A stretch of 64,000 nucleotides of DNA from an uncultured bacterium. GTDB taxonomy: Bacteria > Eisenbacteria > RBG-16-71-46 > CAIMUX01. Shown here in pieces: positions 45,030 through 50,282 of this stretch. The first letter of the stretch is position 1; every line of letters starts with the position of its first letter. The stretch spans positions 3,746 through 67,745 of the forward strand of contig CAZVYN010000008.1 in assembly GCA_964631125.1 (NCBI GenBank), in the 5' to 3' direction. A model generated the notes under the pieces. That model made no database searches, was not told the DNA's origin, and saw only the letters and a list, made by a program, of their open reading frames with translations. The position numbers and the translations under genes were made by a program.

Positions 45030-45146
45030 GGTAGTATGATGACAATCGATTTTAGTTCTAGGAAATATTGCTTCACACTCAAGATCGTTTGACTGTCAAT
45101 ACGCCAAGAGTCGCGGAAGTTGAACCTCACGCAAAAGGAGCGGCCG
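45030..45146. promoter_or_regulatory. AT-rich divergent promoter/operator region between the DUF378 operon and the XRE regulator
   Basis: GC drops sharply (gtagtatgatgacaatcgattttagttctaggaaatattgcttcacactcaag). A TTGACTGTCAA palindrome lies about 65 bp upstream of the regulator start. Confidence 0.45.
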
Positions 45147-45734
45147 TTGCTTTCGAACACGCTGTCCCAGGGTCTGGAATCGTATGGAATCGGAGGGAAG
45201 CTGCGCGGACTTCGGCTGGGAAAACAGATGGGTCTGGTCGAACTCGGGCGCCACACCGGGCTGTCCTCCGCGCTGCTCTCGAAGATCGAGCGCGGAAAGC
45301 TCTTTCCCACGCTCCCGACTCTCCTGCGTATCGCGATGGTCTTCGGCGTCAGCCTCGACTTCTTCTTCTCCCGCGATCTCAAGCGGAGCACGGTCGCCAT
45401 CGTGAGGAAGGCGGAGAGGTCGCGTTTTCCGGAGAGCCCGGACGGCGGACCGCTCGCCTACCACTTCGAGTCGCTCGACTTCACCGCGAACGACCGGAAG
45501 CTGAGCGCGTTTCTCGCGGAGTTCGAAGCGTTGGAGCCAAAAGAGCTCCGCACCCATGCGCACGGGAGCGCCGAGTTCCTCTACTTGATCAGCGGGAAAC
45601 TGGCGCTGACCGTGGACTCGGAGGAGCATCTCTTGGGAGCGGGTGACTCGGTCTACTTCGACTCGACCGAGCCGCACTCCTACCGACGCGTCGGTTCGGC
45701 GAAGTGCGCGGCGGTCGTGGTGACCTTGCCCTAG
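45147..45734 (+). CDS. XRE-family HTH transcriptional regulator with C-terminal cupin domain
   Basis: HTH_3 (LRGLRLGKQMGLVELGRHTGLSSALLSKIERGK) plus cupin barrel. Probable TTG start 6 nt after AAGGAG. The longer ORF begins at 45120. Confidence 0.8.
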   Translation: MLSNTLSQGLESYGIGGKLRGLRLGKQMGLVELGRHTGLSSALLSKIERGKLFPTLPTLLRIAMVFGVSLDFFFSRDLKRSTVAIVRKAERSRFPESPDGGPLAYHFESLDFTANDRKLSAFLAEFEALEPKELRTHAHGSAEFLYLISGKLALTVDSEEHLLGAGDSVYFDSTEPHSYRRVGSAKCAAVVVTLP

Positions 45735-45867: not shown

Positions 45868-46296
45868 TCAATAAGAGTCCGGAAAGCTCCCGTTCCATCT
45901 CCGCGCGAGGTTCACGAACGCGATGTCGGCTGCTACCCCACAGACCAGCCAGACGTAGCGATAGACCTCTCTCGGCGTTGTCATGACTCGGATCTCGGAG
46001 GCCGCGACGGTCACGGTATTGCGAGTTGCCTCCGACTCCAGGGATCCCCATCGCGGGAGGCGAGCGACGACCACGACGGACGAATCGCTGAAGCAATTGG
46101 CCTGGATCAGTTCGCCGCGCAGCGCCGTTCCGTCAATTCGCACGAGTTCGACGGGAAGCGGCAGGCTGGCTCGAACGCGAGCGCAATCCTCGTAGGAGAC
46201 AGGTCTCCCTTCCGCCTCATCCGTGTGGATTCCCCACATGTAACCGTCGACGGTGCAGCCGGTGAGTGCGACGCACGCAATTGCGGCGGACAGCAT
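45868..46296 (-). CDS. hypothetical lipoprotein
   Basis: Lipobox MLSAAIACVALTGC. No recognisable domain. Confidence 0.45.
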   Translation of the reverse strand: MLSAAIACVALTGCTVDGYMWGIHTDEAEGRPVSYEDCARVRASLPLPVELVRIDGTALRGELIQANCFSDSSVVVVARLPRWGSLESEATRNTVTVAASEIRVMTTPREVYRYVWLVCGVAADIAFVNLARRWNGSFPDSY

Positions 46297-46334
46297 CCGT
46301 AGTGACGGCGATGCGGATCCTGGCCTCCAAATCG

Positions 46335-46553
46335 TCAAGCGACCGACTTCCAGGCAACCGACAAGCGCTTCTTACTCGATGCGCAGTCGCGCAAGTACAG
46401 GTTGATCAGAGTCTGGTAAGGGATGCCGGAGTCCTCCGCCATCCGCTTGAAGTACTCGATCGTCTGCTCGTCCAGCCGAATGGTGACCTGACGCTTCAAC
46501 CGCGAGGCGTAGGGGTTTCGCCGAGCCTTCGAGAAGTCGTATTCCTTCCTCAT
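46335..46553 (-). CDS. brnA: BrnA-family antitoxin (type II TA, CopG/RHH-like)
   Basis: MRKEYDFSKARRNPYA...KRQVTIRLDEQTIEYFKRMAEDSGIPYQTLINLYLRD matches BrnA. Confidence 0.75.
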   Translation of the reverse strand: MRKEYDFSKARRNPYASRLKRQVTIRLDEQTIEYFKRMAEDSGIPYQTLINLYLRDCASSKKRLSVAWKSVA

Positions 46554-46574
46554 ATTCTCCTCCTCTCGATGTAG

Positions 46575-46637
46575 ATCACCTGCTCCGTTCGTTCGCGAGG
46601 GCCTGGCGAGGATCCCATTCGAACCGCAGCTCGATCA
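46575..46637 (-). pseudogene. 20-codon remnant of a BrnT (DUF497) toxin gene
   Basis: MIELRFEWDPRQALANERSR* matches BrnT N-termini (FEWDxxKAxxNxRKHG). It is truncated by deletion and ends 24 nt before the brnA ATG. Confidence 0.55.
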
Positions 46638-46745
46638 TACGTACACTGTAACTACACCGCGTAGTGTCGACGCAAGGTCGAGCTTGTTCAGCCGTGCGTC
46701 ACGGCGCCGGGAACAGGCTCCGGAGTAGCTGCCGGCGAATGACGC

Positions 46746-49700
46746 TTGGGCCCAGTCCGATCGGACGCGATACTCCCCAGCCATGACTCCACCGACCGAC
46801 CGACTTCCGCCGGAGACGTGCTCGCGATGACTTCATCGCAGGATCACGATCCGTCCGACGAGACCGACGAGACCGTCGGTTCCCATTCAGCGCCCCCACC
46901 GGCCGACTCGAGCGCCAGCTTCCACCCCGGCGACCTCCTCGCCGATCGCTATCGCATCGAGTCGTTCCTCGCGCGAGGCGGGATGGGGGAGGTGTACCGC
47001 GCGCTCGACGTGGAGCTCGGTGTTGCCGTTGCGCTCAAGACGATCCGTCCCGAGATCGCGGCGGATCCGGCGGCGCTGCGGAGTTTCAAGCAAGAGGTGT
47101 TGACCGCACGGTCGGTCACGCACTCCAACGTTTGCCGCATCTACGATCTCTGGCGACACCACGACGACGCGCGCGATGTCTCGTTCCTCACGATGGAGTT
47201 CTTGCCGGGCGAGACGCTTTCATCTCGGCTGCGCTCCGGCGGAAAGTTGAACGGCGCCGAGGCGTTGCCGATCGTGCGGCAGCTCGCCGACGGACTGGAT
47301 GCGGCGCATCGAGCGGGGATCGTCCACCGTGACTTCAAGAGCGCGAATGTGATCCTCGCGCCCGGCAAGGGCGCGGAGCGCATCGTGATCACTGACTTCG
47401 GACTGGCGATGGCGGCGGAGTGGACGGGGGACGACGTCGCCGTCGGCGGAGCGGTGGCAATCCTCTCGGGCGATACGGATGCGACCGTCGACTCGCTCGA
47501 TCCACGCGGAGCGCAGATCTGCGGGACGCCGGCCTATATGGCGCCGGAGCAGGTGCGCGGCGAGCGCGTCGGGCCGGCGGCGGATCTCTATGCGCTCGGC
47601 GTCACGCTCTTCGAGATGCGGACGGGACAATTGCCGTTCCGCGGGAGGTCGCCCCTCGAGACGGCGCAACTCCGCCTCACGACGCCCCCGCCTCGTCCGA
47701 GCTCGATCGCGGAGCTGGAGCCCGAGTGGGAAGTAGCGATCCTCAGGCTCCTCTCGCTCGATCCCGCGGAGCGGTTTGCGAGCGCGGGCGAGGCGGCGCA
47801 ATCTCTCGTCGCGAACGTCAACCGGGCGGACGGAGCGCCGGCCGCTCTCGTTTCTCCCTCCTCTCGCCCGAGACACTCGCTTCCGGCGGAACACGACGCA
47901 TTCGTCGGAAGGCGAGATGTCCTTTCCTCTCTCTCCGCGCTCTTGGAGCCCGCGCCCGCGTTGGTCACGCTGCTCGGCATCGGCGGCACAGGCAAGACAC
48001 GTCTCGCGCGCCGTTACGGATGGGAGAGTCTCGAGCGTTGGCCGGGCGGGGTCTGGTTCTGCGATCTAGCAGACGCGCGCGATGGGAACGGGATCGCCTC
48101 GGCGGTCGCCGCGGCGCTGGGCGTCTCGCTGACCAGAGGCGATCCGGTAGACCAGTTGGGGCACGCGATCGCGGGGCGCGGGCGGGCGCTCCTTATCTTG
48201 GACAATTTCGAGCAGATCACCGCGGAGGCGGAGGCGACGCTCGGGCGGTGGCGCGCACGCGCGAGGGAGACGTCGTTTCTCGTCACGACGCGCGAACGCC
48301 TCCAACTGGGCGGAGAGAGTGTGGTCGAGGTCGAGCCGCTGGATCCCGAGACCGAGGCGGTCGAGCTGTTCCGAGAGCGGGCGCGAGCGCAGCGGCCGGG
48401 GTTCGAAGTGACCGATGAGAACCGGGCGGCGGTGATCGAGATCGTTCGGCTGCTCGATGGCCTGCCGCTCGCCATCGAGCTCGCGGCGTCACGCGTGCGC
48501 CTGCTGTCGCTCGAGCAGTTGCGTGAGCGGTTGGGCGATCGGTTCGCGGTGCTCGCCAGCTCGAAACGGGGGCGACACGGAACTTTGCGCGCGGCGCTGG
48601 ACTGGTCGTGGTCGTTGCTCACGGCTTGGGAGCAATCGGCGGTGGCGCAGGCGTCGGTTTTCCAGGGTGGGTTCACGCTGGAGGCGGCGGAGGCGGTGAT
48701 CGATCTGTCGGGGTTCGAAGACGCGCCGATGGTCTTGGATGTGATCCAGTCGTTGGTGGACAAGAGTTGGTTGCGGGCGCGAGTGGTGCTGCAGGCGCCG
48801 CGGTTTTCGATGTACACGACGGTGCAGGAGTATGCGGCGGAGAAGGAAACCGCGGAACTTCGTTCCGCGGTTACAGCGCACGGCGCCTACTTCGCCACGA
48901 AGGGCGCGGAGAAGGCAATCACTGCGCTGAGCCGCCGAGGCGGGGTCGCGCGACGAGCGGCGCTACGCGTAGAGCTCGACAATCTGATCGCGGCTTGCCG
49001 CGCCGCGCTCGCGGCTGGGAACGAACAGGTCGCAGGACTGACCTATGTCGCGGCCGCTCATGTGCTCGCTCTCCAGGGGCCGGCCGGCGCCTCGGTGGAA
49101 CTCGGGCTGAACGTGCTGGGCGTCTCGAGGGATCCAACCCTGCGTGCCCGCGTGCTCTCCGCGTTGTCCTTCGCGGAAAGAGCGGCAGGCAAGATGCGAG
49201 CGGCGCAGCTTCACTGCGAGGACGCCGTCGCCATCTATCGCGCCGCGGGCGCCCGCAGTTCCGAGGGGGACGCGATCCTGAGTCTCGGCACGCTCTGTTT
49301 CGATCAAGCTCGGATGGACGAGGCTCGATCCCACATGGAGGCGGCGCTCACGATCAGCCGCGAGGGGAGAATCCGGAATCTGGAGTGCGGGTCGCTCCAG
49401 CTCCTGGGTCTGTTCCAGCGACGGTTGGGACAGTCGGAGCAAGCGCGATCGAACCTCGAGGCCTCCCTCGCCATTGCGCGCGAGAAGGGATACTGGCGCT
49501 TCGAGGCAGCCGCGCTCGGCAACTTAGGCATGATCCTACGGGACCTGGGTCGATTCGAGGAGTCCCGTTCGGCCTATGAGGCCACGATCGCGATCCACCG
49601 CGAAACGGGCGAACGGGGAGGCGAGGGCATCACGCTCGGCAACCTCGGAGCTCTGCAAGCCGAGCAGGGACGCACCAGCGAGGCGACGTCTTCGATGGAA

Positions 49701-50282
49701 AAGGCTCTCGCGATCAGCCGCGAAGTGGGAGAACGTCGCTTCGAGGGGCATGTCATTGGAAGCTTGGGTACTCTGTACGTGACGATGGGTCGGCTGGACG
49801 AAGCGAGAGTCTCCCTCGAGGCCGCGCTCGCGATCCACCGAGAAACGAACAGCCCGCGCGGAGAAGGTGACGTGCGCCGCTACTTGGCCAGCCTTTCTTT
49901 CCGCGAGGGGCGGCTGGAGGAGGCTCGAGCCCACTTCGAGGCATCGCTCGCCATCCAACGAACGCTGGGCGACCGAATCTTCGAAGGCGTCACCCTCGGC
50001 CTGATCGGATCTCTCCTCGTCGAATCGGGCCAGCCGGCGGAAGCGCGTCGCTTCATCGACGACGGCATCGCGGTTCTCCGTGAAGTCGGCGACCGCTTGA
50101 GACTCGCAACGGGCCTCTGTCACCTCTGTTCGTTGGAGCTCGAGGAAGGGAATCTCGACGCGGCGCGGACGGCTCTGGCCGAGGCCGAGGAGATCTCCGG
50201 GGCGCTCGAGGTAGGAGAATCGGACCTGGAAAGAGACGTCGCGAAGCTGCGCGAGGCGCTGAGGAAGAAGACGGAGGCCTGA
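46746..50282 (+). CDS. Ser/Thr protein kinase with AAA/NB-ARC-like ATPase and TPR repeats (STAND-type)
   Basis: Kinase subdomains (GGMGEVYRA, VALKTI, HRDFKSANVIL, DFGLA). Central P-loop GIGGTGKT. At least eight C-terminal TPR units. An alternative start lies at 46827. Confidence 0.85.
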   Translation: MGPVRSDAILPSHDSTDRPTSAGDVLAMTSSQDHDPSDETDETVGSHSAPPPADSSASFHPGDLLADRYRIESFLARGGMGEVYRALDVELGVAVALKTIRPEIAADPAALRSFKQEVLTARSVTHSNVCRIYDLWRHHDDARDVSFLTMEFLPGETLSSRLRSGGKLNGAEALPIVRQLADGLDAAHRAGIVHRDFKSANVILAPGKGAERIVITDFGLAMAAEWTGDDVAVGGAVAILSGDTDATVDSLDPRGAQICGTPAYMAPEQVRGERVGPAADLYALGVTLFEMRTGQLPFRGRSPLETAQLRLTTPPPRPSSIAELEPEWEVAILRLLSLDPAERFASAGEAAQSLVANVNRADGAPAALVSPSSRPRHSLPAEHDAFVGRRDVLSSLSALLEPAPALVTLLGIGGTGKTRLARRYGWESLERWPGGVWFCDLADARDGNGIASAVAAALGVSLTRGDPVDQLGHAIAGRGRALLILDNFEQITAEAEATLGRWRARARETSFLVTTRERLQLGGESVVEVEPLDPETEAVELFRERARAQRPGFEVTDENRAAVIEIVRLLDGLPLAIELAASRVRLLSLEQLRERLGDRFAVLASSKRGRHGTLRAALDWSWSLLTAWEQSAVAQASVFQGGFTLEAAEAVIDLSGFEDAPMVLDVIQSLVDKSWLRARVVLQAPRFSMYTTVQEYAAEKETAELRSAVTAHGAYFATKGAEKAITALSRRGGVARRAALRVELDNLIAACRAALAAGNEQVAGLTYVAAAHVLALQGPAGASVELGLNVLGVSRDPTLRARVLSALSFAERAAGKMRAAQLHCEDAVAIYRAAGARSSEGDAILSLGTLCFDQARMDEARSHMEAALTISREGRIRNLECGSLQLLGLFQRRLGQSEQARSNLEASLAIAREKGYWRFEAAALGNLGMILRDLGRFEESRSAYEATIAIHRETGERGGEGITLGNLGALQAEQGRTSEATSSMEKALAISREVGERRFEGHVIGSLGTLYVTMGRLDEARVSLEAALAIHRETNSPRGEGDVRRYLASLSFREGRLEEARAHFEASLAIQRTLGDRIFEGVTLGLIGSLLVESGQPAEARRFIDDGIAVLREVGDRLRLATGLCHLCSLELEEGNLDAARTALAEAEEISGALEVGESDLERDVAKLREALRKKTEA

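Follow-up and report, generated by a model that had tools for sequence, protein, structure and literature searches.

The Brucella abortus BrnT/BrnA type II toxin-antitoxin system pairs a toxin of the PF04365 family with an antitoxin of the PF14384 family. In a secondary account (PMC10714953, citing Heaton 2012), a Lys-His pair near residues 17-20 and a Glu near residues 86-88 are reported to be necessary for the RNase activity of BrnT. A toxin-first, two-step decay has been described for chromosomal toxin-antitoxin loci (PMC13617665). A survey of Photorhabdus found toxin-only pseudogenization 185 times and antitoxin-only pseudogenization 8 times, mostly through truncation (PMC13617665), and the decay of ccdO157 is a further example (Mine et al. 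2009, as cited in PMC13617665). Orphan antitoxins are also abundant in Klebsiella, where they have been read either as degraded pairs or as possible anti-addiction modules (PMC7192599, PMC7354431).

Here we describe a brnA locus from a 64-kb stretch of DNA of an uncultured organism. This whole stretch is referred to as the window, all coordinates are positions within it, and all of the brnTA features lie on its minus strand. As in the described BrnT/BrnA system, the antitoxin is a member of the Pfam BrnA_antitoxin family, and the relatives of the locus are arranged toxin first, with the brnT stop codon overlapping the brnA start codon and with BrnT proteins that contain the full PF04365 domain and its Lys-His motif. 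In the window, palindromes overlap the promoter. Unlike the described system, the toxin gene has been destroyed, leaving 18 N-terminal and 11 out-of-frame C-terminal codons and thus no working pair. The locus has more in common with the eroded Photorhabdus and ccdO157 loci, in which the toxin is likewise truncated or deleted while the antitoxin ORF is intact within a conserved chromosomal neighborhood. It differs from these in its toxin family and its uncultured host, and also because its deletion can be defined exactly against a syntenic intact ortholog and is accompanied by a promoter/operator lesion. The window locus is an ordinary, textbook toxin-first decay intermediate in the BrnTA family, and this route of decay is common and well described. 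An anti-addiction role, such as that of the Erwinia chromosomal CcdA against the F-plasmid CcdB or that considered for the Klebsiella orphans (PMC7192599, PMC7354431), would be no more than a possibility for the window BrnA.

The intact brnA gene and the remnant of brnT

The antitoxin gene (46553..46335) encodes 72 amino acids and contains no stops or frameshifts, which bears out an earlier note on this DNA that had called an intact brnA. Its product matches Pfam BrnA_antitoxin (PF14384) over residues 10-56 with 38.5 bits against a cut-off of 26.1, which makes it a member of that family, and it also matches the overlapping CopG_antitoxin family (PF12441; 31.9 bits, cut-off 28). Against the NCBIfam BrnA equivalog (NF047399), however, it scores 26 bits, under the 60-bit cut-off, and therefore belongs to a different subfamily from the BrnA curated by NCBI, which is a further departure from the described system. 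Homologs number in the thousands, with the best 120 being 78-96% identical to the window protein. The closest of all (P0002, 96% identical) is encoded on the Logan contig L008, and the best match among GTDB species representatives is 79% identical. An AlphaFold model of the BrnA monomer, made with 30 homologs, predicts a strand at residues 24-27 followed by helices at residues 29-42 and 46-60, an order that matches a ribbon-helix-helix fold, with pLDDT values of 74-88 across the strand/helix part and a mean of 64.5. Nearly all of the best Foldseek matches of this model in the PDB were ribbon-helix-helix proteins (ParG, CopG, Arc, CdbA, VapB, PutA, and AtaR), none of them reaching E ≤ 0.001. 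By sequence, CopG gave E = 0.067 and Pfam RHH_1 gave E = 0.02. Between the window and L008, brnA differs by 18 synonymous and 3 conservative non-synonymous changes (A17S, E41D, and T59S), and wherever the window protein deviates from the majority residue of the family, its residue also occurs in other members. This undamaged state would fit either continued selection or a deletion that is simply too recent, with the time before and after the deletion being inseparable in these data.

The contig L008 contains the same site with a complete operon. Its brnT gene is intact (98 codons; 88.7 bits with Pfam BrnT_toxin, cut-off 34.5) and its stop codon overlaps the brnA start (ATGA). Upstream of brnT is the same divergent Ser/Thr kinase gene, 75% identical at its N-terminus to the window protein, and downstream of brnA is a gene encoding the same lipoprotein-like protein, with 78% identity. 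These two synteny markers correspond in the window to a Ser/Thr kinase-TPR gene recognized by its Pfam families (46827..50282, plus strand) and to a gene with the lipobox LTGC (45868..46338, minus strand). As would be the case if the whole site had descended vertically, brnA and the downstream gene have similar dS values between the window and L008 (0.50 and 0.48, respectively). Alignment to an intact brnTA locus had been proposed as the means to define the deletion, and with L008 it yielded a single clean 208-nt gap in the window, equivalent to L008 nt 602-809, with flanks that align base for base. The junction is located at 46586..46587, its placement being ambiguous by 1 nt, and the flanks share an imperfect microhomology (GAAC|G and GAAG|G, or GAAnG). 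The gap extends from position 2 of brnT codon 18 to position 2 of codon 87, such that codons 19-87 are lost, and the first residues to be removed are the catalytic Lys-His pair itself (K19-H20 in L008 numbering). Since 208 equals 3n+1, the reading frame is shifted and the stub ends with Ser-Arg-stop after 18 BrnT codons, while the codon for E88 is kept but out of frame. An intact operon at the same site, differing by one 208-nt brnT deletion, directly supports the decay intermediate proposed in the earlier note. That note had taken the toxin body to be deleted, whereas the last 11 codons and the ATGA overlap actually survive out of frame. This C-terminal remnant (46585..46550; EQVIYIERRRI, 11 codons plus a stop) sits in the +1 frame with respect to the N-terminal remnant, forms the end of an ORF spanning 46550..46618, and aligns with EQLIYIERRST and a stop in L008. 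Its TGA overlaps the brnA ATG (ATGA), as it does in L008.

The N-terminal remnant comprises the first 18 codons (46638..46585) of a 20-codon ORF (46638..46576) that encodes MIELRFEWDPRQALANERSR followed by a stop, exactly as it was first read. When the BrnT of L008 was searched against the 64-kb window with tblastn, residues 1-18 were matched with 83% identity (E = 1e-6), together with a weak match to residues 86-96 in another frame. A family HMM built from 61 intact family BrnTs was also used to search the window in all six frames, segment by segment, and the 20-codon segment was its sole match (E = 4.6e-8, 29.4 bits), with the next segment at E = 2.7. As judged from these comparisons, the 20-codon ORF is a real BrnT N-terminus, and the proposed resemblance to BrnT (DUF497) is therefore detectable by HMM as well. 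No other brnT was found with either tblastn or the family HMM across the 64-kb window, nor was a full-length brnT in any frame, including the alternative frames in which one might have been missed. Neither Pfam nor NCBIfam had a match for the 20-mer or for the 22-aa ORF in the +1 frame, and Pfam had none for a hypothetical in-frame fusion of the N- and C-terminal remnants. The BrnT domain starts only at W8, leaving 11 of its 77 positions in the 20-mer, and such peptides are too short; thus, these blanks are not evidence against homology. The complete BrnT domain (PF04365/DUF497; ~77 positions, residues 8-88 of 98 aa) is absent from the window, where residues 1-18 alone are in frame. With its toxin gene a pseudogene, and with no further brnT anywhere in the 64 kb, the locus lacks one of the two partners that a functional type II toxin-antitoxin module must encode. 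The N-terminal remnant carries a K12Q substitution at a position occupied by Lys in every intact BrnT displayed. Overall it differs from L008 at 6 of 54 nt (3 synonymous, 3 not), which are too few changes for dating the deletion. The stub had been reported to terminate 24 nt before the brnA ribosome binding site, but its stop is in fact separated from the AGGAGG core (46564..46559) by 11 nt and from the brnA ATG by 22 nt. This core is located 5 nt before the ATG, within a Shine-Dalgarno region (GAGAGGAGGAG, 46557..46567) that is identical in the window and L008.

The lack of a Pfam or NCBIfam match for the 20-mer alone might be taken to indicate an artifact or a misreading, that is, an assembly error, a chance ORF, or an evolved leader peptide. 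However, seven assemblies made independently and drawn from three sources (ENA, JGI, and Logan) agree with 100% identity over a 461-nt region that includes the junction, and hence the deletion is not an assembly artifact. The gene tables of these seven assemblies also contain no brnT gene between the kinase gene and brnA. Moreover, the remnant aligns base for base with both the 5' and 3' ends of the intact syntenic brnT and is recovered by the family HMM. On the basis of the L008 alignment, the seven assemblies, and the family HMM, the artifact or misreading explanation was rejected as a whole and is extremely improbable. When the region from the stub to the 5' end of brnA was examined by RNA folding, it was no more stable than shuffled sequence (z = 0.22) and gave no sign of a structured leader.

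Promoter, operator, and the downstream gene

The upstream regions of 67 family loci were aligned to identify their common promoter features. The family promoter consists of a TTGnnn -35 element and a TA(C/T)AnT -10 element, separated by a spacer of 17 nt in 50 of the 67 loci, L008 among them, with spacers of 16 nt in 11 and of 18 nt in 4. Two other apparent 19-nt spacers were misassigned: read by eye, that of L083 measures 17 nt, and in L022 the start had been put in the wrong place. The distance from the -10 element to the brnT start codon is 6 nt in 48 of the 67 loci, and this spacing implies a leaderless or near-leaderless brnT mRNA. The family spacer usually contains a CTACAnTGTAG palindrome, which abuts a second TACAnTGTA-like copy over the -10 element. 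This pair of palindromes would be a plausible candidate for the binding sites of a ribbon-helix-helix repressor.

In the window, the -35-like hexamer TTGCGT (46670..46675) aligns with TTGCGC in L008 and with TTGACx in other family members, while the -10-like hexamer TACAGT (46645..46650) occupies the aligned position 6 nt upstream of the brnT ATG. The proximal operator-like palindrome TACAGTGTA (46642..46650) overlaps the -10 hexamer, matches TACAnTGTA exactly in the window as in L008, and recurs in the family. The spacer (46651..46669) is 19 nt compared with the family norm of 17 nt. Relative to both L008 and the family, the 2 extra nt are found at the center of the distal palindrome, which now reads CTAC-GCGG-TGTAG (46664..46652), and the operator stretch as a whole is CTACGCGGTGTAG-TTACAGTGTA compared with a family consensus of CTACAnTGTAG-TTACAnTGTA. 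From the general behavior of sigma-70 promoters, the 2-nt insertion would be expected to weaken this promoter and to separate the operator half-sites. The earlier note had considered the promoter region to be retained along with the antitoxin, which is accurate for brnA and the promoter hexamers, but not for the lengthened spacer or the split operator palindrome. The inverted repeat it described, ACACT (46667-46663) and AGTGT (46647-46643), is present as well, but its 5-nt arms are unremarkable and the conserved elements here are instead the promoter palindromes. With arms of only 5 nt, this repeat went unreported in an inverted-repeat search seeded at 6 nt. A promoter/terminator consensus scan of 46200-46800, which accepts only spacers of 16-18 nt, returned 0 sites. 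A different promoter palindrome, GTACATAC...GTATGTAC, was observed at some of the family loci (L027, L059, and L087).

The lipoprotein-like protein encoded downstream of brnA has no match in Pfam, and among 5.8 billion proteins there is just one further homolog (P0122). A search for related loci with this protein found none in genome contigs or in metagenome contigs. Its homologs are located at L008 1043-1294 and L015 77-553. The contigs encoding P0122, L015 and L016, begin just upstream of the lipoprotein-like gene (positions 1-80 and 1-35, respectively), such that brnTA is cut off. Both of these assemblies break where brnTA would be expected, and a brnTA sequence that is repeated in that genome could cause such breaks. 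Elsewhere in the window, an HTH-cupin regulator gene (45120-45734, plus strand) has two called starts in different assemblies, yielding proteins of 195 aa and 204 aa.

From its position, the lipoprotein-like gene may be cotranscribed with brnA, and it is conceivable that the old brnTA promoter and BrnA, acting as an autorepressor, have been co-opted to serve a brnA-lipoprotein operon. The brnA stop is overlapped by a possible TTG start of the downstream gene at 46338 (TTGA), and L008 has the same frame and arrangement. Neither a terminator-like nor a promoter-like site was found between the two genes, and no upstream gene on the same strand could supply read-through because the kinase gene is divergent. 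However, gene callers start the lipoprotein-like gene at ATG 46296, which is 38 nt after the brnA stop. The genes downstream of brnA in other family loci are unrelated, and the two genomes that carry the lipoprotein-like gene are too few to establish conservation of the arrangement. Given that the proposal is also purely conjectural, we consider co-option as a regulator of this gene to be distinctly improbable. Separately, the 140-145-aa genes downstream of other brnTA loci were considered as a conserved third gene of the operon and were rejected, as they are mutually unrelated.

How often brnT is disabled in related loci

To place the window locus among its relatives, we surveyed 80 brnA loci from GTDB species representatives, of which 76 could be assessed. 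As these loci were retrieved with BrnA as the query, the sample is biased towards intact brnA. The HMM detected a full-length BrnT ORF in 57 of the 76 loci, two others (L073 and L075) were found to be intact upon inspection, and one (L081) has a BrnT ORF of intact length with a divergent N-terminus. Overall, an intact brnT is located just upstream of brnA in 57-60 of the 76 loci as well as in L008-L014, often with the ATGA overlap. A disabled brnT beside a complete brnA was found in about 16 of the 76, including 11 in which the lesions are beyond explanation by sequencing error. These figures provide a rough cross-species frequency of about 14-21% for toxin-disabled brnA loci. The lesions are quite diverse: nonsense mutations at Trp-8 (L017 and L031) or at codon 24 (L080), an in-frame core deletion that leaves a mini-protein (L020), 5' deletions with only the C-terminus left (L023, L036, L038, L048, and L084), frameshifts, some of which are possibly long-read sequencing errors (L029, L058, L060, L068, and L096), and loci with little or no brnT left (L041 and L082). 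The L041 locus has independently acquired a layout like that of the window, consisting of the promoter, ~11 N-terminal codons, and then brnA. In L082, brnA is complete and no trace of brnT is present, and loci of this type hint that an orphan brnA may persist for a long time. As a reverse control, 20 metagenome loci were retrieved with BrnT as the query, and in this small sample brnA was directly downstream in 18. The other 2 are distant and have no BrnA-like ORF, and no visibly broken brnA was seen among the 20.

Several of the individual loci have features of their own. L017 and L031 come from unrelated MAGs (Nitrospirae and Eisenbacteria, respectively), and both have a stop at the conserved Trp-8 (RFE-stop; 1229-1231 in each contig), while the remainder of brnT and brnA is otherwise intact. 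In L036, a HicA toxin ORF (~100-404; HicA_toxin, 35.3 bits) ends right at a remnant of the BrnT C-terminus, and brnA is intact. The 5' part of brnT seems to have been replaced by a second toxin-antitoxin module or to have received it as an insertion. Some intact brnTA relatives reside in islands (L009 710-1036, 370-702, and 2468-3154; L013 551-1811) together with toxin-antitoxin and defense genes, the neighbors including a Gp49/HTH_37 pair, a HicB-like gene, a CAP12-PCTIR TIR-domain protein, and ISL3 and IS110 transposases. Unlike these island relatives, the window copy sits between ordinary chromosomal genes.

The recurrence of toxin-less loci also raises the question of whether the window BrnA is a selected orphan antitoxin, which would neutralize the BrnT of a paralogous brnTA or of incoming plasmids and phages and thereby protect its host from post-segregational killing or toxin activation. 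This concept is established for CcdA and has been proposed for orphan antitoxins (PMC7354431, PMC7192599). Consistent with such a role, there is no damage to the promoter hexamers or to the ORF and Shine-Dalgarno sequence of brnA, omega between the window and L008 is 0.037, and about 1 in 5 family loci are toxin-less, some of them without a trace of brnT. In addition, the best BrnA matches across phyla are 78-86% identical to the window protein, and cross-recognition of related BrnTs is therefore plausible. Several of these points are nonetheless open to other readings, as the low omega is explicable by the time before the deletion and the survey of toxin-less loci favors intact brnA. There is also no second brnT within the 64 kb, and the promoter spacer/operator lesion argues against selection for expression. 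Consequently, we regard this role as unlikely, albeit less so than co-option of BrnA by the downstream gene.

Decay of the operon and fate of the orphan antitoxin

The window locus is probably best explained as what erosion has left of a chromosomal type II brnT-brnA operon, in which brnA is most likely a not-yet-degraded passenger of toxin-first decay. The common ancestor with the L008 organism had an intact operon between the Ser/Thr kinase and lipoprotein-like genes. In the window lineage, one 208-nt deletion inside brnT then shifted the frame and removed the Lys-His pair. The 20-codon ORF and the out-of-frame 11-codon tail, which are all that is left of brnT, cannot yield a toxin. The promoter hexamers are still present, as are the reading frame and Shine-Dalgarno sequence of brnA. 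Transcripts would presumably still begin at the former brnT ATG or close to it. Translation of the 20-codon stub would terminate 22 nt ahead of brnA, which would then be translated from its own strong AGGAGG site. The BrnA product is expected to dimerize and bind the TACAnTGTA-type palindromes at the promoter. With no toxin left for BrnA to neutralize, the locus would be on the usual two-step course of decay, losing its toxin before its antitoxin. The 2-nt spacer insertion, by which the distal palindrome is split, has the look of a second step along this course.

By itself, the significance of the locus is small, as it constitutes a clean and precisely mapped case of the death of a toxin-antitoxin module by internal deletion of its toxin gene. 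Modestly useful by-products of the analysis are a family-wide promoter/operator architecture for this brnTA clade and the rough frequency of toxin-disabled loci. As a third, the intact L008 locus and the deleted window locus form a natural allele pair for testing both neutralization by the orphan BrnA and promoter repression. It is doubtful that selection has kept the orphan BrnA, whether as an antidote to an incoming or paralogous BrnT or, after co-option, for repression of the lipoprotein-like gene. If this were true, however, the recurrence of toxin-less brnA across phyla, at ~1 in 5 loci, would amount to a general second life for a highly conserved antitoxin.
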